Below are positions 11,615-26,379 of a stretch of 26,379 nucleotides of DNA, in pieces; within the stretch, counting starts at the first letter, position 1; every line of letters begins with the position of its first letter. The notes under the pieces are model-generated. The model worked only from the letters and a program-made list of their open reading frames with translations. It made no database searches and was not told the DNA's origin. The DNA is from a virus. Its lineage: Duplodnaviria > Heunggongvirae > Uroviricota > Caudoviricetes. The DNA lies in the IMG/VR virus record IMGVR_UViG_2698536576_000002; one strand, given 5' to 3'. Made by a program: the position numbers and the translations under genes.

Positions 11615-12283
11615 ATGACAGTTGCTGATTTCAAACGTCCTAAGTTGGAGCTCCCAAACGGGGCAAACAAACTACTATTACACTCTTGTTGTGCACCATG
11701 TTCCGGTGAAGTGATGGAGGCTCTTCAGGCCTCAGGAATCGACTACACCATCTTCTTCTATAATCCGAACATTCATCCTCAGAAAGAGTATTTGATTCGT
11801 AAGAATGAGAATATTCGATATGCTGAACAACATGGTGTACCGTTTATCGATGCTGATTACGACACTGACAACTGGTTTGAGCGAGCCAAAGGAATGGAAT
11901 GGGAGCCCGAACGTGGGAGGCGTTGTACTATGTGTTTTGACATGCGTTTTGAACGGACGGCGCTGTACGCCGCTGAAAATGGTTTCAGTGTGATCAGCAG
12001 TTCACTGGGCATTTCTCGCTGGAAAAATATGCAGCAGGTTAACGACAGCGGACGGCGAGCTGTCGCACATTATCCGGGCATGGTGTACTGGGATTATAAC
12101 TGGCGCAAGCAGGGAGGCTCGTCCCGCATGATTGAAATCAGCAAACGCGAACAATTCTATCAGCAGGAATATTGTGGTTGCGTGTATTCACTTCGCGATA
12201 CCAATTTACACCGCAAATCCCAGGGACGCCCTCTTATCAAAATTGGTCAACTCCACTACGGTAAAGAAGAAGGGCAGGAATGA
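11615..12283 (+). CDS. QueH-like epoxyqueuosine reductase (DUF208 family), 222 aa
   Basis: [11 protein letters not shown] near the N-terminus, [18 protein letters not shown] and YCGC Cys motifs, which I recognise as QueH family features; no search run. Confidence 0.5.
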
Positions 12284-12894: not shown

Positions 12895-13239
12895 CTATTT
12901 TTTGGTGCTATAGACTTTTTCGCCTGAGAAGTCTGGAGCGACCCAAAAGTTAATATTAAACTGAGCATCATCGCTTAGTTCAACACGGTGCCAGTATTGT
13001 GGTGGGCTTGTTGCAAAAGAGCCAGCATTAATAACTACTTTTATCTCTGGTTCAGTAGTATTCTCATCAGCAAAACCATAATATGTTACAGTGCCTTCCA
13101 TTACGCACAACTGCCCAAAAACACCTGCTGCTGTATTATGATGTGTTAATAATGCTGAAGGTACGTTCTCTTTTGTGAAGAACGGAGTTGAGCGTTTGAT
13201 TACCCAATCTTTAGGAATTCTCTTGTGTGTCATAACCAC
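12895..13239 (-). CDS. DUF1971-family protein (YeaR-like), 114 aa
   Basis: RSTPFF...VMEGTVTYYGFADE...EPE...AGSFATSPPQYWHRVE...FNINFWVAP pattern resembling E. coli YeaR as I remember it; AGGAGGTG RBS. Confidence 0.55.
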   Translation of the reverse strand: MVMTHKRIPKDWVIKRSTPFFTKENVPSALLTHHNTAAGVFGQLCVMEGTVTYYGFADENTTEPEIKVVINAGSFATSPPQYWHRVELSDDAQFNINFWVAPDFSGEKVYSTKK

Positions 13240-14103
13240 CTCCTATAAAACATGCATTATGAATGCTCCTTTTGAGGAGTTATGTCAAGCTGTTATGAAA
13301 CACATAATTGATATGTTGATTAGAGGAGTAGATAGAATAAATATGGTTGTTTTTGGTGTAACTACTTGTTTTTCTTTTGGTTTATGCATTCTGTGTGTTA
13401 GGAATAAGTTATTAAAGTTTAATCAAGAAATCTCGATGCATTCCACATAGATTACTGTTACTGAACCTTATTGTGTGCATTAGTTGTGTTCTGAAATTTC
13501 AGCTTAATTATTTATGATATATTTTTTAACGATAAATGTTTTCCCAGGTGAAAGACAGTTGGGAATAAGATAAGTAATATATCATTAATCCTGATTATTC
13601 CCAGGTACCTTTACTGTGCATATAAATAAATCATATATGCATCAAATAGTGTAAAGGCATCCTTTTAGATATGTCTTATCAAATGTTAATGACTTGAGTG
13701 GGAAACATGATTCCAGCAACTTATCATGTGGCTACTTTATAAAAATAATGCCCATATAAAACAACAAGCGAAAAGGATTACGGATAAAAAAGGAGCGAGA
13801 TGTGCAAACTTGTTATTTTCCATGTTTAACCACCTTAAATAATTGATGATGACGGGATGATTGCATCTGTAATGCTTTTATTGAAATGTTATGATAAAAA
13901 AGAACTTTTTCATAACATTAAAATGTAATTTAGCTAATCGTTTTTAATAATAAGTGTCGTATTTCTATCCTTGTACCAGCTATTTGATATGTAGTGTTTG
14001 TTCATGCTATGTGGGGCTTTACACCATAGCCAGTTTATTTATACTTTATTCGTCAGCCTGAACAACTGGCATCTGCTGCACTGCGCCATAGAGAGATTGA
14101 GAA

Positions 14104-15884: not shown

Positions 15885-15960
<76 letters not shown>

Positions 15961-15963
15961 TAT

Positions 15964-16038
<75 letters not shown>

Positions 16039-19723: not shown

Positions 19724-20512
19724 ATGAGCGAGAAATTAAAGATAGTCTATCGCCCATTACAAGAATTGTCACCGTATGCGCACAACGCCAGGACGCACAG
19801 TACTGAGCAGGTGGCACAACTGGTAGAAAGTATTAAGCAATTCGGCTGGACTAATCCGGTGCTGATTGACGAAAAGGGCGAAATTATTGCGGGTCACGGT
19901 CGTGTTATGGCGGCTGAAATGCTCAAAATGGATTCTGTTCCGGTCATTGTTCTGTCTGGCCTGACGGATGAGCAGAAAAAGGCGTACCGCTTGGCAGATA
20001 ATCGCCTACCGATGAATGCTGGCTGGGATGAAGATCTGTTGCGGATGGAGCTGTCGGTCCTAATCAATGCTGATTTTGATGTCTCCCTGACAGGCTTCGG
20101 CCCGACAGAAATTGATGAACTGTTGACGGATGTTTTGCCCGGTACAGGAAATAAGGAGGAGCCGTATACGACGAAAATTGATACGCCTGTTTATGAGCCG
20201 TCGGGCGGTAAACCGGATATCAGTGAACTGTACGACGATACGAAAACTCAGGAGCTGATCAGCCGGATACGTTCGGCGTCCCTTGATCCTGATATTGAGA
20301 AATTCCTCCTGTGTGCGGCAGAACGTCACACGGTGTTTAATTTCAGCAGAATTGCGGACTATTACGCTCATGCCCCCGCTGAAATTCAGTGCCTTTTCGA
20401 GGAGTCGGCGCTGGTGATCATTGATTATCAGCAGGCTATTGAAAATGGATTTGTCCGAATGACGCAGCGCATGGTGGAGATCATGCATGGCGGGGAGGAG
20501 GAATATGCGTGA
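19724..20512 (+). CDS. ParB-like nuclease domain protein (full-length YnaK-like), 262 aa
   Basis: ORF track; N-terminal ParB/Srx-type segment LQELSPYAHNARTHSTEQVAQLVESIKQFGWTNPVLIDEKGEIIAGHGR. Confidence 0.6.
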   Translation: MSEKLKIVYRPLQELSPYAHNARTHSTEQVAQLVESIKQFGWTNPVLIDEKGEIIAGHGRVMAAEMLKMDSVPVIVLSGLTDEQKKAYRLADNRLPMNAGWDEDLLRMELSVLINADFDVSLTGFGPTEIDELLTDVLPGTGNKEEPYTTKIDTPVYEPSGGKPDISELYDDTKTQELISRIRSASLDPDIEKFLLCAAERHTVFNFSRIADYYAHAPAEIQCLFEESALVIIDYQQAIENGFVRMTQRMVEIMHGGEEEYA

Positions 20513-21263
20513 TGATTTTTGCGCCTTTATTCTGACTCACGGGCGACCGGAAAAAGTTCTGACTTACCGGACGTTGCGTCGTGCTGGCTATACCGGGAAA
20601 ATTTTTATCGTTGTTGATGATGAAGATAAGACACGGCATCAGTACATGGCTGAATTTGGTGAACAGGTGCTGGTATTTTCCAAAGCCGATATCGCCAGTC
20701 GTTTTGACGAAGCCGATAATTTTGGTGACCGCCGCTCAATTTTTTACGCCCGTAATGCCTGTTTCGACCTGGCAAAACTGGTCGGGTGTAAATACTTCAT
20801 TCAGCTCGATGATGATTATCACGAGTTCCAGTTTCGGGTGGATCGCAACTATGACCAGGCCTATTTTCCGATAAGGAAACTGGATGCGATCCTTTCTGAA
20901 ATGCTGGCGTACTACGAATCAATACCTGTTCTTTCCATCGCTATGTCGCAGGGCGGGGATTTTCTTGGTGACAATGGCGGCCATGCTTCGTGGGTGAAAC
21001 GCAAGGCAATGAACAGCTTTATCTGTTCGGTTGATCGACCGTTCTCATTCATGGGGCGCATTAACGAGGATGTGAATACGTACACGAATCTCGGTCGCTG
21101 TGGTGAATTGTTTATGACGATCGGTGCTGTCCAGTTAGGGCAGAAACAGACGCAGAAAAACAGCGGCGGAATGACCGAGCTGTATCTGGATTCCGGAACC
21201 TACGTTAACCGAATCCCATCTCGGCAAGGAGCTGCTGGAAAAAGTCGAGCTGACGGAGGATAA
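20505..21263 (+). pseudogene. YdaY-like gene with GT-A-like motifs; 3' end replaced by J-derived sequence
   Basis: Start MRDDFCAFILTHGRPEKV with GGGGAGGAGG upstream; IFIVVDDED and LDDDY motifs; from about 21187 the DNA encodes J-homologous sequence in another frame. Confidence 0.45.
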
Positions 21264-22137
21264 CGCCAGCAAACTGGAGGAGTTTTCGAAAGAGTGGAAG
21301 GACGCCAACGATAAATGGAATGCCATGTGGGGCGTCAAAATTGAGCAGACCGAAGACGGCAGGCATTATGTCGCGGGGCTTGGCCTTAGTATGGAGGATA
21401 CGGAGGAAGGCAAACTGAGCCAGTTCCTGGTTGCCGCTAACCGTATCGCGTTTATTGACCCGGCAAACGGGAATGAAACGCCGATGTTTGTGGCGCAGGG
21501 CAACCAGATATTCATGAACGAAGTGTTCCTGAAGTATCTGACGGCTCCCACCATTACCAGTGGCGGCAATCCTCCGGTATTTTCCCTGACACCGGACGGG
21601 CGGCTGACGGCGAAAAATGCCGATATCAGCGGTAACGTGAATGCGAACTCCGGGACGCTCAATAATGTCACGATTAACGAGAACTGTCGGGTTCTGGGAA
21701 AACTGTCCGCGAACCAGATTGAAGGCGATCTCGTTAAAACAGTGGGCAAAGCTTTCCCCCGGGACTCCCGTGCACCGGAGCGGTGGCCATCAGGGACTAT
21801 TACCGTCAGGGTTTATGACGATCAGTCGTTTGACCGGCAAATTGTTATTCCAGCGGTGGCTTTCTGCGGTGCCAGACATGAGCGGGAGAATAGCGATACT
21901 TATTCGTCATGCCGCCTGATAGTGAAGAAAAACGGGGCTGAAATTTATAACCGAACGGCTCTGGATAATACTCTGATTTACACGGGTGTTATTGATATGC
22001 CTGCAGGCAGTGGTGTAATGACACTGGAGTTTTCTGTATCAGCATGGTGGGTAAATGGCTGGTATCCCACAGCAAGTATCAGCGATTTGCTGGTTGTGGT
22101 GATGAAGAAAGCCACTACAGGCATCACGATTAGCTGA
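21187..22137 (+). pseudogene. C-terminal fragment of host-specificity/tail-tip protein J (about 315 codons)
   Basis: Frame reads ...[54 protein letters not shown]...[26 protein letters not shown], matching the lambda J C-terminal region as I remember it; no N-terminal part and no other tail genes present. Confidence 0.7.
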
Positions 22138-22830: not shown

Positions 22831-22858
22831 AGCCCGCCGGTTCAGGCGGGCTTTTTTG
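22831..22858 (+). terminator. Intrinsic terminator after lom: AGCCCGCC-ggttca-GGCGGGCT followed by TTTTTT
   Basis: Perfect 8-bp stem plus T-run. Confidence 0.75.
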
Positions 22859-22868
22859 TGGAGTGGAT

Positions 22869-25244
22869 ATGGCAGCAGTAAAAATCTCAGGTGTGCTGAA
22901 AGATGGTGCGGGAAAACCAATACAGAACTGCACTATTCAACTGAAGGCAAAGCGTAACAGCACCACGGTACTGGTGAACACGGTGGCCTCTGAAAATCCG
23001 GATGAAGCCGGGCGTTACAGCATGGATGTTGAGTATGGCCAGTACAGCGTCACCCTGCTGGTTGAAGGTTTTCCGCCTTCACATGCCGGGACCATTACCG
23101 TCTATGAAGGTTCCAGACCAGGTACGCTGAATGATTTTCTCGGTGCCATGACGGAAGATGATGTCATGCCGGAGGCATTGCGTCGTTTTGAGGAAATGGT
23201 GGAAGAAGCGGCACGCAACGCTGAAGCCGCCTCTCAGAGCGCAGCGGCGGCAAAGAAATCCGAAACTGCAGCGGCATCATCGAAGAACGCGGCGAAAACC
23301 TCAGAAACGAATGCAGCTAACAGCGCACAGGCGGCAGCGACCTCACAGACTGCATCGGCAAACTCCGCGACAGCAGCCAAAAAATCAGAAACCAACGCGA
23401 AAAACAGTGAGACAGCCGCAAAGACGAGCGAAACCAACGCAAAGTCCAGCCAGACGGCAGCGAAAACCAGCGAAACGAATGCTAAAGCCAGTGAAACTGC
23501 GGCAAAAAACAGCCAGGTTGCAGCAGCCCAAAGCGAGAGCGCGGCAGCCGGTTCTGCGACTTCAGCAGCTGGATCAGCAACTGCTGCGGCTAACAGCCAG
23601 AAAGCTGCGAAGACGAGTGAAACTAACGCAAAGTCCAGCCAGACGGCAGCGAAGACCAGCGAAACGAATGCCAAAGCCAGTGAAACTGCGGCGAAAAGCA
23701 GTCAGGATGCAGCGGCTCAAAGCGAGAGTGCCGCAGCCAGTTCTGCAAGCGCGGCGGCTGCTTCTGCCACTGCATCAGCTAACAGTCAAAAAGCAGCAAA
23801 AACCAGTGAAACCAACGCAAAGGTGAGCGAAACAGCGGCTGCGAACTCAGCGAAAGCATCGGCAGCAAGCCAGACGGCAGCTAAAGCAAGCGAAGATGCA
23901 GCCAGAGAGTACGCAAGCCAGGCTGCGGAGCCGTATAAATATGTCTTACAGCCGCTGCCTGATGTGTGGATACCATTTAACGATTCGCTGGATATGATTA
24001 CGGGCTTTTCGCCGTCATATAAAAAAATTGTTATTGGTGACGATGAAATAACGATGCCTGGCGACAAGATTGTTAAGTTTAAACGTGCATCGAAAGCAAC
24101 CTATATTAACAAATCTGGTGTGCTGACAGAGGCTGCCATTGACGAGCCACGATTTGAACGTGATGGCCTGCTTATTGAGGGGCAAAGAACAAACTACATG
24201 CTCAATTCGGAAAGCCCTGCCAGTTGGGGGCGATCGTCAAATATGGATGTGCCCGAAACAGGGACGGATAATTTTGGTTTTACCTATGGAAAGTTTGTCT
24301 GCAACGATTCTCTGATTGGGCAAACCTCAGCCATTAATATGGCATCAATTGCTGCAACAAAGTCAGTTGATGTCTCAGGCGATAATAAACACGTGACAAC
24401 CTCATGTCGTTTTAAAACAGAACTGCAGGTAAGGTTGCGTATCCGGTTTGATAAATATGACGGTAGCGCAACAACTTTTCTTGGTGATGCGTATATTGAT
24501 ACACAAACGCTTGAAATTAATATGACAGGCGGTGCTGCCTCAAGGATTACAGCGAGAGTCAGAAAGGACGAAGCTACCGGATGGATTTTTGCAGAGGCAA
24601 CAATTCAGGCAATTGATGGGGAGTTAAAAATAGGCTCTCAGATACAGTATTCTCCTAAGCAGAGCGGGGCAACCGTATCTGGTGACTATATTTATCTGGC
24701 CACCCCACAAGTAGAAGATGGGCCTTGTGTATCATCTTTTATTATATCAGGAGCGACGGCGGCGACCCGCGCAAGCGATATAGTTACAGTTCCAATTAAG
24801 AATAATCTTTATAATCTTCCTTTTACGGTTCTTTGTGAGGTACATAAGAACTGGTATAAAACGCCAAATGCAGCGCCACGTGTTTTTGATACCGGCGGTC
24901 ATCAAACCGGAGCGGCTATTATTCTTGGCTTCGGTCGTTCAACAGATTACGACGGATTTCCTTATTGCGATATTGGAGGAGCTAACAGACGGGTAAACGA
25001 AAACGCATCGCTTGAAAAAATGGTTATGGGGATGCGTGTAAAGTCAGAGCAGTCTACGTGCTCAGTAAGTAACGGGCATATATCCAGCGAAACAAAAACC
25101 ACATGGTCCTGTATTCAGAACACCGCAATTATCCGTATTGGAGGCCAGACTACAGCCGGGTTACGTCATTTATTTGGTCATGTCAGGAATTTCAGAATAT
25201 GGCACAAGGCATTGACTGATGCTCAGGTGGGGGAGTCAATCTAA
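22869..25244 (+). CDS. Side tail fibre protein (Stf-like N-terminus, Ala/Ser/Thr-rich repeat shaft, distinct C-terminal domain), about 791 aa
   Basis: ORF 22863..25244; ATG at 22869 gives MAAVKISGVLKDGAGKPIQNCTIQLKAKRNSTTV, lambda Stf-like; C-terminus ends ...HVRNFRIWHKALTDAQVGESI. Confidence 0.85.
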   Translation: MAAVKISGVLKDGAGKPIQNCTIQLKAKRNSTTVLVNTVASENPDEAGRYSMDVEYGQYSVTLLVEGFPPSHAGTITVYEGSRPGTLNDFLGAMTEDDVMPEALRRFEEMVEEAARNAEAASQSAAAAKKSETAAASSKNAAKTSETNAANSAQAAATSQTASANSATAAKKSETNAKNSETAAKTSETNAKSSQTAAKTSETNAKASETAAKNSQVAAAQSESAAAGSATSAAGSATAAANSQKAAKTSETNAKSSQTAAKTSETNAKASETAAKSSQDAAAQSESAAASSASAAAASATASANSQKAAKTSETNAKVSETAAANSAKASAASQTAAKASEDAAREYASQAAEPYKYVLQPLPDVWIPFNDSLDMITGFSPSYKKIVIGDDEITMPGDKIVKFKRASKATYINKSGVLTEAAIDEPRFERDGLLIEGQRTNYMLNSESPASWGRSSNMDVPETGTDNFGFTYGKFVCNDSLIGQTSAINMASIAATKSVDVSGDNKHVTTSCRFKTELQVRLRIRFDKYDGSATTFLGDAYIDTQTLEINMTGGAASRITARVRKDEATGWIFAEATIQAIDGELKIGSQIQYSPKQSGATVSGDYIYLATPQVEDGPCVSSFIISGATAATRASDIVTVPIKNNLYNLPFTVLCEVHKNWYKTPNAAPRVFDTGGHQTGAAIILGFGRSTDYDGFPYCDIGGANRRVNENASLEKMVMGMRVKSEQSTCSVSNGHISSETKTTWSCIQNTAIIRIGGQTTAGLRHLFGHVRNFRIWHKALTDAQVGESI
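23419..23797 (+). repeat. Tandem duplication of a 189-bp unit (two copies) inside the fibre shaft, itself built from about 33-bp subrepeats
   Basis: AAGACGAGCGAAACCAACGCAAAGTCCAGCC at 23421 recurs as AAGACGAGTGAAACTAACGCAAAGTCCAGCC at 23610; protein repeat KTSETNAKSSQTAAKTSETNAKASETAAK. Confidence 0.7.
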
Positions 25245-25525
25245 TGAAAGATTTAACACTCAAATTTGAAGACAGGGCCGACTTTTCGGCCTTTATGGAG
25301 AGTATTGGCTATTATGATGACGAGTCGATGCAGGATGATATTCTTATCGACGTGATAGGTAACGTGTACAAAGAAACCGGAGAACTGACTGAAGATGGCG
25401 AACCGGTATGTGTTAAGGAAGACGGATATTTTGTAAACGTGCGCATCATTAATGATTCGCAAATATCGTCATTATTCGATGAATACGTGGTTGCTGTTGA
25501 GCATCAACTTCGTGGCTGGATGTGA
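25244..25525 (+). CDS. Small acidic hypothetical protein, 93 aa, translationally coupled to the fibre gene
   Basis: ORF track; TAATG overlap with the stf stop; AT-rich codon usage. Confidence 0.5.
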   Translation: MKDLTLKFEDRADFSAFMESIGYYDDESMQDDILIDVIGNVYKETGELTEDGEPVCVKEDGYFVNVRIINDSQISSLFDEYVVAVEHQLRGWM

Positions 25526-25534
25526 GGAAGAAAA

Positions 25535-26379
25535 ATGGCTACATCGACAGTAATTCCTGATGACATCAAAACGCTAAAATCCGACGTTAGCAAATTAAAA
25601 AACGATCAAGGAAGCTACGCAACAAAATCTTATGTAGACAATAAAACAACATGGAATGGTTATTGCAATGTAATCTATGATCAAAAAACATTGCCAACAA
25701 CTGGAACTATATTCAGCGGTAAGCTGCATTTGTCAAATAAGACTGGTGAAACGGAAAACGCTTATAGTGACATATATACCAGAAAAAATATTGATGGTAC
25801 TAAAGATACAATGACGAGGATCGTCACACATAACGGGACAAAAGGTATCTTTTGGGACTTTAGTGATCTTTACGGAGGAACTTTAATTTTTCCAGGCAGT
25901 GATGGTTACCTTAAGATGGGGAACTGTCTCATGTCGTATGGTGTGCGGGGAAGTAACGCGCTTATTAAGTTTGATAATACAGACTCATTGCAGATCAAAT
26001 ATGCTAATCACGGGTCGACCATGACACTAAACACGCAAGGTACGGCGTATTCTGGTGTGTCGACGTTATTATGGGGAAATTCCAGCCGTCCTGTTGTTTA
26101 TGAAGTCGGTGTTGATGGTGGCGCTTATATGTTCTATGCGCAGAAAAATACCGATAACACCTATATGTTAAGCGTTAATGGTGCATGTCATGCCACCGCA
26201 TTTAACCAGCATTCCGACCGGGATCTGAAAGACAACATTCAGGTGATCGATAATGCAACCGACCGCATCCGTAAAATGAACGGCTATACATACACGCTTA
26301 AAGAAAACGGTATGCCCTATGCTGGTGTCATTGCACAGGAAGCTCTGGAAGCAATCCCAGAAGTTGTAGGTTCCGCAAT
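25535..26379 (+). CDS. Tail fibre/tailspike-like protein with C-terminal intramolecular chaperone (peptidase S74-type) domain; 3' end beyond window
   Basis: Hand-translated open frame from ATG 25535 (GAGGAAG RBS) to the window edge; C-terminal motif HSDRDLKDNIQVIDNATDRIRKMNGYTYTLKENGMPYAGVIAQEALEAIPEVV. Confidence 0.6.
   Translation, partial: MATSTVIPDDIKTLKSDVSKLKNDQGSYATKSYVDNKTTWNGYCNVIYDQKTLPTTGTIFSGKLHLSNKTGETENAYSDIYTRKNIDGTKDTMTRIVTHNGTKGIFWDFSDLYGGTLIFPGSDGYLKMGNCLMSYGVRGSNALIKFDNTDSLQIKYANHGSTMTLNTQGTAYSGVSTLLWGNSSRPVVYEVGVDGGAYMFYAQKNTDNTYMLSVNGACHATAFNQHSDRDLKDNIQVIDNATDRIRKMNGYTYTLKENGMPYAGVIAQEALEAIPEVVGSA

Follow-up and report, generated by a model that had tools for sequence, protein, structure and literature searches.

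A probable two-tier side tail-fibre operon in a defective Rac-type prophage of Escherichia coli

We analysed a stretch of 26,379 nucleotides (nt) from the virus record IMGVR_UViG_2698536576_000002 (Caudoviricetes), here called the window, which ends in three tightly packed genes on the + strand. They encode a side tail fibre (Stf), a small protein of 93 amino acids (aa), here called p93, and a second, distal fibre. The prophage is a defective lambdoid one of the Rac type from Escherichia coli, its host-recognition cassette forms this end of the window, and we think it likely that the three genes form a two-tier lateral tail-fibre operon. The domain identities, the gene order and coupling, the linkage of the parts across phage lineages and the alternation of conserved joints with variable cores were all observed. 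The cassette is a common and partly described coliphage module, fossilised here in cryptic Rac, and it is ordinary except for p93.

In the proposed arrangement, the lambda-type N-terminal anchor of Stf would fit into the tail tip, and a coiled-coil shaft rich in repeats would lead from it through a conserved neck to two β-sandwich domains of the lectin type, C1 and C2. C1 resembles gene transfer agent (GTA) head-spike fibres and carbohydrate-binding modules (CBM), C2 is probably LamG-like, and their variable cores would bind surface polysaccharide. The p93 protein, made in step with Stf, would act on this tip, either as a folding or assembly factor or as a small bound structural adaptor. The distal fibre, short and trimeric, would attach to the tip of Stf, the proximal fibre, by a conserved N-terminal peptide. 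Its S74 chaperone would help it to fold and would then be freed by autocleavage at Ser227 (Ser227/Lys232 dyad), exposing a second, exchangeable receptor-binding tip. In Rac no virions of its own would be fitted with these fibres, and the most plausible reason for the cassette's survival there is that it donates host-range modules to lambdoid phages that infect the cell.

The range of O-antigen or capsule types within reach of a coliphage is set by its side-fibre cassette, and the parts of such cassettes are swapped in host-range engineering. The outcome of the analysis is a parts list: an anchor, a shaft, a neck, two lectin-type domains, a small partner that stays constant and, as an option, a distal fibre that has its own docking peptide. 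The conserved joints that we mapped are where natural recombination appears to occur. A first-pass annotation of the window, made from its letters alone, had left out that the tip holds two β-sandwich domains, p93 as a constant tip partner in five lineages, the optional nature of the distal branch and the cryptic setting.

The proximal fibre ends in two different tip domains

The Stf gene (22863..25244, +) lies in the stfR position and encodes 793 aa from a GTG, or 791 aa from the RefSeq ATG at 22869. The protein matches phrog_1419 over its full length (1497 bits) and is named 'prophage tail fiber N-terminal domain-containing protein' in RefSeq (WP_000741769). The first-pass annotation had called its N-terminus lambda Stf-like, and Pfam agreed: phage_tail_N (PF08400; E = 7.3e-67, 223.9 bits, cut-off 26.6) covers aa 5-134 (22875..23264, +), the lambda Stf-type anchor. 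An Ala/Ser/Thr-rich repeat shaft follows (aa 135-364; 23265..23954, +; 55.8% G+C), which is probably a trimeric coiled coil. Tandem Repeats Finder detected within it a repeat of 189 nt (63 aa) in 2.2 copies with 83% identity (23403-23822). Homologues that share both ends have 685-742 aa, compared with 791-793 aa here, which suggests that shaft length varies by repeat number.

The C-terminal 430 aa of Stf are unrelated to lambda Stf. The best-conserved part of this module is a linker or neck (aa 361-453, QPLPDVWIPFNDSLDM...LLIEGQRTNY; 23943..24221, +), a candidate junction or docking region that had low confidence in the AlphaFold2 (AF2) monomer model. Domain C1 (aa 437-637; 24171..24773, +) is a β-sandwich of the GTA head-spike-fibre type with a CBM fold. 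It scored 50.5 bits against the NCBIfam model NF048003 (GTA_spike_fiber; cut-off 36) over profile positions 1-181 of 182, and its phmmer match in the PDB was Rcc01080 of the Rhodobacter capsulatus GTA (RcGTA; E = 1e-7). The AF2 model of C1 was confident, and the nearest folds were a phage baseplate protein and CBMs.

Domain C2 (aa 651-793; 24813..25241, +) is probably LamG- or concanavalin A-like and ends in RHLFGHVRNFRIWHKALTDAQV. The motif FGHVRNFRIWHKALTDAQV, quoted in the first-pass annotation as the typical end of such lectin domains, is indeed there (aa 771-789, nt 25173-25229), and the end motif of C2 is kept in all variants. The sole relevant Pfam match was Laminin_G_3, which stayed at 17-19 bits, below the cut-off of 27.6, and spanned profile positions 98-150 only, exactly the quoted C-terminal strands. 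The same family came out on top in 13 of 13 diverse homologues (C2 36-77% identical to that of the window; best E = 1.5e-6), and a homologue with 73% identity was reported as galectin-like on the basis of AlphaFold-Multimer (PMC11990801). When PDB sequences were searched with the C2 profile, just the tail end of Rcc01080 (E = 0.056) and a chance match to a T-cell receptor were returned. The LamG-like tip is thereby supported at the superfamily level, by profiles and literature, while the window sequence itself fell short of the family threshold (19 vs 27.6 bits). AF2 of the Stf C-terminus used an alignment of 26 sequences with 76-100% identity, out of a family of more than 2500 members; C1 alone folded and the neck and C2 had scores of 25-45 in AF2's local confidence measure (pLDDT). 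For aa 621-793, which hold C2, the alignment was shallow and the pLDDT about 25.

p93 is a small acidic protein coupled to the fibre gene

The p93 gene (25244..25525, +) matches phrog_1361 (E = 2.5e-46), a family annotated as of unknown function. At 25244 its ATG and the stop codon of Stf run into each other in TAATG, with the A of TAA shared, and p93 is predicted from this overlap to be translationally coupled to Stf. The protein is strongly acidic, with an isoelectric point of 4.05 and 22 Asp and Glu against 7 Lys and Arg residues, so that the coupled 93-aa acidic protein of the first-pass annotation is real. AF2 predicted an α/β fold with a pLDDT of 85.

Neither the single sequence nor a profile of p93 matched anything in Pfam, NCBIfam or the PDB sequences, and a search of BFVD returned just uncharacterised phage proteins of about 80-100 aa. 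No fusion of p93 to another domain was found among 1.84 billion representatives; two long proteins that matched p93 repeatedly did so by an acidic stretch only and were discarded as compositional. We also considered p93 as the counterpart of Rcc01079, the base protein of the RcGTA spike. This was rejected, as p93 had no PDB sequence match though Rcc01079 is present in 6tb9, and the two differ in fold, a jelly roll in Rcc01079 (PMC7296036) and a predicted α/β fold in p93. We propose that p93 would be an assembly or folding factor of the fibre tip or an adaptor.

The distal fibre combines a conserved N-terminal peptide with an S74 chaperone

The distal fibre gene (25535..26379, +) starts nine nt past the p93 stop and is preceded by a GAGGA box. 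The window breaks off at codon 281 of its 346. The product matches phrog_4563, a family of 346 aa ('tail fiber protein', E = 6.6e-166); tail-fibre PHROGs cover aa 87-280. The downstream sequence needed to see its end is available from an identical locus, in which the gene is complete with 346 aa (L001:10673-11713).

Its first residues (MATSTVIPDDIKTLKSDVSKLKND...; 25535..25639, +) carry the motif M-x-T-x-T-x-I-P-x-D-I-x-x-L-K, which is common to otherwise unrelated distal fibres of Drexlerviridae, T5-like phages and Nonagvirus. This peptide of about 20-35 aa would serve as the docking element. The window ends within the S74 intramolecular chaperone (IMC) domain (26213..26379, +), which the first-pass annotation had recognised by eye and the profile search found at aa 227-278 (Pfam PF13884, Peptidase_S74; E = 4.9e-14, 52.8 bits, cut-off 22). 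SDRDLKDNI corresponds to aa 227-235 and GVIAQE to aa 264-269. The S74 region also gave a phmmer match to gp37 of phage S16 (6f45_A, E = 1.2e-3), where the motif aligns with SDRRIKKDI. The translation contains the Ser...Lys pair of the cleavage motif, H-S227-D-R-D-L-K232. By analogy with published work on endosialidase and T5 pb1, Ser227 and Lys232 may be the catalytic dyad, and the chaperone would be released by autoproteolysis after trimerisation. Likewise, as in endosialidase and T5 pb1, the domain match starts exactly at the Ser of S-D-R-x-L-K with the Lys five residues on. Unlike them, the window protein carries its S74 domain on a very short fibre, which would be just 226 aa when mature and has no virion anchor of its own. 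A body of 186 aa lies between the docking peptide and the IMC. Between phages this body is 66-72% identical, compared with 90-97% for the IMC.

Some short 'distal fibres' of 225-234 aa (L058 6292-6993, L070 5215-5895, L084 5270-5944) have no parts other than a docking peptide, a coiled coil and a region that resembles S74. Judging by the S74-like motif, a stub alone would remain of them after cleavage.

The cassette is common, and its conserved joints separate variable parts

Many complete E. coli genomes carry the 3.5-kb cassette with 100% identity, and 281 of 5426 cover at least 80% of it. By tblastn, the two-domain fibre tip occurs in 219 phage records and p93 in 181. The module can hence not be called unusual, as it was in the first-pass annotation. 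The cultured lambdoid phages HannyBb, Tritos, 2G7b and PhiR63_1 are 98-99% identical to the window over Stf, p93 and the opening ~105 nt of the third gene. Past that point the third gene diverges, and the nucleotide match stays at 99% just to window position 25640. The Nonagvirus ESCO3 is 92% identical from Stf codon ~360 to the end. In HannyBb, a DNA invertase gene lies about 0.6 kb past the cassette, and no evidence was found that it acts on the cassette genes.

We inspected ten loci from five lineages, including HannyBb, phage 21 and ev243 (lambdoid), ESCO3 and BRET (Nonagvirus), KarlJaspers (Drexlerviridae), IrisVonRoten and AKFV33 (T5-like) and rV5_ev146 (rV5-like). At all of them a fibre that ends in C1-C2 is followed by a p93 homologue (88-110 aa), which begins at the stop codon of the fibre or just past it. 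The distal fibre is found in most lineages and is absent from phage 21, ev243 and the rV5-like phage; in the first two the small gene is followed by the gene of a 97-aa membrane protein and in the last by tail assembly genes. The distal fibre is an optional distal branch. Where the distal gene is present, it starts with the conserved M-x-T-x-T motif whatever comes next and ends in an S74-type region.

A further 80 prophage loci from IMG/VR were picked for a p93 with ≥94% identity. Identity ranges from 43 to 100% in their C1 domains and from 32 to 100% in their C2 domains. At 78 of the 80 loci the next gene begins 13 nt after p93 and carries the conserved peptide, and the remaining two break off 3 nt past p93. 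The conservation profile along Stf, calculated as mean pairwise identity over 19 non-redundant variants, alternates in the same manner. It is about 0.7 at aa 361-453, about 0.3 in the C1 core (aa 454-613), 0.55 at aa 614-673, 0.28 in the C2 core (aa 674-753) and 0.65 at aa 754-793. Pairwise identity of p93 correlates best with that of the distal N-terminal peptide (rho 0.89) and with that of the 40 C-terminal residues of Stf (rho 0.71), and poorly with that of the domain cores (rho 0.2-0.4). The pattern is one of exchangeable binding parts set apart by constant joints.

Base composition changes along the cassette as well. The G+C content of Stf is 53-56% over its first 364 codons (N-terminus and shaft) and 44-46% in its C-terminal part, that of both downstream genes is 41%, and the second fibre gene is AT-rich in this relative sense, as had been noted. 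Compared with phage 21, C1 is 86%, C2 41% and p93 54% identical. The G+C step within Stf and these discordant segments indicate that the cassette is a mosaic, again in line with the first-pass annotation.

Distal-fibre bodies of the AKFV33 type also occur fused inside longer fibres, in DT57C LtfA, Kenya-K36, phiKT and phiR2-01. In DT57C LtfA, the only fused sequence that we read, the N-terminal docking peptide is missing, which fits a role of the peptide in non-covalent attachment. DT57C LtfA (L093 3480-6710) is homologous to the body of the separate AKFV33-type distal fibres from about aa 530, so that fused and split versions of one fibre coexist among T5-like phages.

Comparison with known fibre systems

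The layout is already known in part from the T5-like phage Bas32 (IrisVonRoten), and it is no new kind of system. In Bas32, Gp22-Gp23-Gp24 have the same three-gene order and coupling as the window. The proximal fibre there is Gp22, from whose C-terminus a 'galectin-like' domain protrudes; Gp24, the distal fibre, has an IMC and is attached to Gp22 (Humolli et al. 2025, PMC11990801). This attachment rests on AlphaFold-Multimer only (PMC11990801). Gp22 and the window Stf are 58% identical in C1 and 73% in C2. Gp23 is the homologue of p93 with 38% identity, and Gp24 has the same M-x-T-x-T-x-IP-x-DI-x-x-LK start and an IMC end. The two differ in the anchor, which in Bas32 is an N-terminus of the T5 LtfC-collar type instead of lambda phage_tail_N. 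They also differ in the distal fibre, which in Bas32 has 574 aa, is 'T-shaped' and carries two binding domains, compared with 346 aa in the window. The Bas32 paper gives the small protein no role (PMC11990801).

With lambda Stf-Tfa, the cassette shares the homologous PF08400 anchor, the genome position after J and lom, and the repeat-rich shaft. The C-terminal half is unrelated, p93 stands in place of Tfa (Caudo_TAP), and a second fibre gene follows. A further comparison is with Rcc01080/GhsB (PDB 6tb9), the capsule-binding head-spike fibre of RcGTA, which was predicted to be β-rich and lectin-like (PMC7296036, PMC10218006). Rcc01080 is homologous to C1, but unlike Stf it is a 325-aa monomer that sits on capsid pentons via a 10-residue N-terminal peptide (PMC7296036, PMC10218006), and it lacks the trimeric shaft, the LamG-like C2, p93 and the distal fibre. 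We also came across a near-copy of the RcGTA head-spike fibre in the Rhodobacter phage RcWaterboi (L092 2603-3849), labelled 'minor tail protein' and preceded by an 88-aa gene. This indicates that the domain moves between GTA head spikes and phage tails.

Proximal fibres that carry a second fibre, with tips matured by an S74 chaperone, are likewise found in DT57C LtfA/LtfB and phiEco32 gp14/gp15 (PMC4728585, PMC10713586). DT57C LtfA, however, has its own S74 tip and neither C1-C2 nor p93, and Stf shares with it just a similarity in the shaft repeats. Docking of the distal fibre in the manner of phiEco32 gp15 or DT57C LtfB, which attach to the mid-region of gp14 or LtfA, was considered and rejected, since the N-terminus of LtfB (MSRPLMPKSG...) is unrelated to MATSTVIPDDIKTLK; the attachment in DT57C and phiEco32 is thus a different system.

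Possible roles of p93, the distal gene and the tip domains

What p93 does at the tip can be explained in two ways. It may be a chaperone only, a non-structural folding helper for C1-C2 that is Tfa-like in function but unrelated to Tfa and is released before or after assembly, while the distal fibre docks directly on the Stf neck or the C-terminal strands. We give this explanation somewhat less than an even chance. It sits well with the gene position, which is that of lambda Tfa, with the coupling to Stf, with the small size and acidity that many chaperones have, and with the presence of p93 even where a distal fibre is lacking (phage 21, ev243 and the rV5-like phage). The Stf homologue of AKFV33, ORF137, was identified as a virion protein by mass spectrometry, and that gel-based proteomics found the fibre and did not report the small protein (PMC3326045); the study covered four gel bands only, however, so this absence is uninformative. 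The constancy of p93 speaks the other way. Its identity remains ≥94% across exchanges of C1 and C2 for versions with 32-67% identity, which would be odd for a fold-matched chaperone, unless it recognises the conserved strands only.

Alternatively, p93 could stay on the fibre tip as a structural adaptor, a socket for the distal N-terminal peptide and a constant joint between variable receptor-binding parts. We hold this only tentatively. The conserved block made of the Stf C-terminal strands, p93 and the distal peptide, flanked by variable sequence at 78 of the 80 IMG/VR loci, with the other two ending right after p93, is what such a joint would look like, and the best correlate of p93 identity is the distal peptide. 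In the loci that we inspected, every protein that begins with the peptide is encoded downstream of p93, and the peptide is gone when that fibre body forms part of a longer, fused fibre. However, the genes are 13 nt apart and their linkage is confounded by this adjacency, p93 homologues exist without any distal fibre, and Humolli et al. modelled the attachment without discussing the small protein (PMC11990801). In its broadest form the idea is that p93 (phrog_1361) is a universal joint of enterobacterial phage fibres, which caps C1-C2 and offers a socket for the M-x-T-x-T-x-IP-x-DI-x-x-LK peptide. This is speculative, and we would expect it to be wrong sooner than right. If it is true, one plug-and-socket lets lambdoid, T1-like, T5-like, 9g-like and rV5-like phages swap their receptor-binding tips.

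It is improbable in our view that the gene at 25535 encodes a trans-acting chaperone for the first fibre and no fibre at all. A 225-aa Drexlerviridae homologue does bear the BASEL label 'putative lateral tail fiber chaperone', the homologues of 225-234 aa add little to the N-terminal peptide, the coiled coil and the S74-like region, and Stf itself has neither an IMC nor Tfa. On the other hand, the body in the 346-aa version is variable between phages as receptor-binding tips are, and it is this body that the tail-fibre PHROGs match. S74 domains are moreover known to act in cis, as intramolecular chaperones (Pfam PF13884; PMC4728585), and the gene is lacking from phage 21 and ev243, whose Stf tip is the same. 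For C1 and C2 themselves, binding of surface polysaccharide (O-antigen or capsule) by the variable cores is most likely. There is only a slight chance that they are enzymes and not lectins, i.e. a depolymerase of O-antigen or capsule of the concanavalin-like, glucanase-type lyase or hydrolase kind.

Several points weigh against the two-tier operon as a whole. In the window sequence, C2 lies below the Pfam threshold, and its fold model had very low confidence. The correlation between p93 and its neighbours is confounded by their physical adjacency, since the correlated segments are also neighbours on the DNA, and it cannot prove an interaction. Since p93 exists without a distal fibre, being purely a 'socket for the second fibre' is not its sole function. 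In the Rac host the cassette is probably not expressed within any particle. Finally, glycan binding, the docking site of the distal fibre, the role of p93, the trimeric state and the autocleavage are all steps that we infer.

The cassette lies in a cryptic Rac prophage

The prophage is located at ttcA and contains intR, xisR, recET, kilR, sieB, ydaT, ydaV, the lysis cassette, trkG and a remnant of ynaK. On the 3' side of this remnant, a C-terminal fragment of the tail-tip protein J is followed by lom and the fibre genes. Head genes and further tail genes were absent from this Rac prophage, which is therefore unable to build a particle. The J fragment (Phage_Tail_Tip and Ig_GpJ_C; 21325-22137) abuts an unrelated pseudogene (20487-21263), and this junction (20487-22137) is the scar of the deletion that took the head and tail genes.

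In cryptic Rac the cassette is at most a recombination reservoir. Lambda recombines with the stf/tfa of Rac at a frequency of about 2e-6 (PMC3945230), which makes such a role plausible. In the Rac prophage of many non-K-12 E. coli the cassette replaces stfR-tfaR-pinR, and this would turn Rac into a standing reservoir of host-range modules.

Promoter- and terminator-like sites inside the cassette were at chance level in our scan. The sole convincing hairpin (22831-22852; 8-bp stem with 7 G-C pairs, then a T run) resembles a terminator and lies between lom and stf, upstream of the fibre gene. The three genes thus look like one transcription unit, and their expression would need read-through of this hairpin by antiterminated late transcription.

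No Tfa-type gene was found in the window with Pfam, PHROGs or NCBIfam, and neither p93 nor the next open reading frame had a Tfa match, in agreement with the first-pass annotation. That annotation had also asked what lies downstream. In the genome with the identical copy, the 346-aa third gene is followed by the gene of a 97-aa membrane-type protein, a Tfa remnant of 40 codons and the sitDCBA operon. The remnant, a pseudogene about 0.7 kb past the window end, is the only trace of an assembly gene. No invertase or shufflon-like switch was present in the window, and none lies past the cassette in the identical E. coli locus, which continues into sitDCBA.

The 97-aa protein has predicted membrane helices and is encoded about 0.4 kb past the window end (L001 11756-12049). 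It follows the fibre cassette in all lambdoid versions, with 93-100% conservation, and had no family match. Its position alone suggests a function in lysogenic conversion or exclusion. In phage 21 (L086, OL657228, 5292-9126) the fibre, the small protein and the 97-aa membrane protein are followed directly by sitDCBA, and the same junction is found in the Rac-type prophage of E. coli 13TMH22 (L001 11756-15850). The iron/manganese transporter sitABCD thus looks like lambdoid-phage cargo at this fibre end.

Further inside the prophage we noticed genes for QueH (epoxyqueuosine reductase) and a DUF1971 protein (11615-12283 and about 13000-14000). They adjoin a stretch of low G+C content (29-35%) and are possible cargo genes. 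Two adjacent prophage-borne tRNA genes, tRNA-Thr (TGT) and tRNA-Gly (TCC), lie at 15885-16038 upstream of the lysis cassette.

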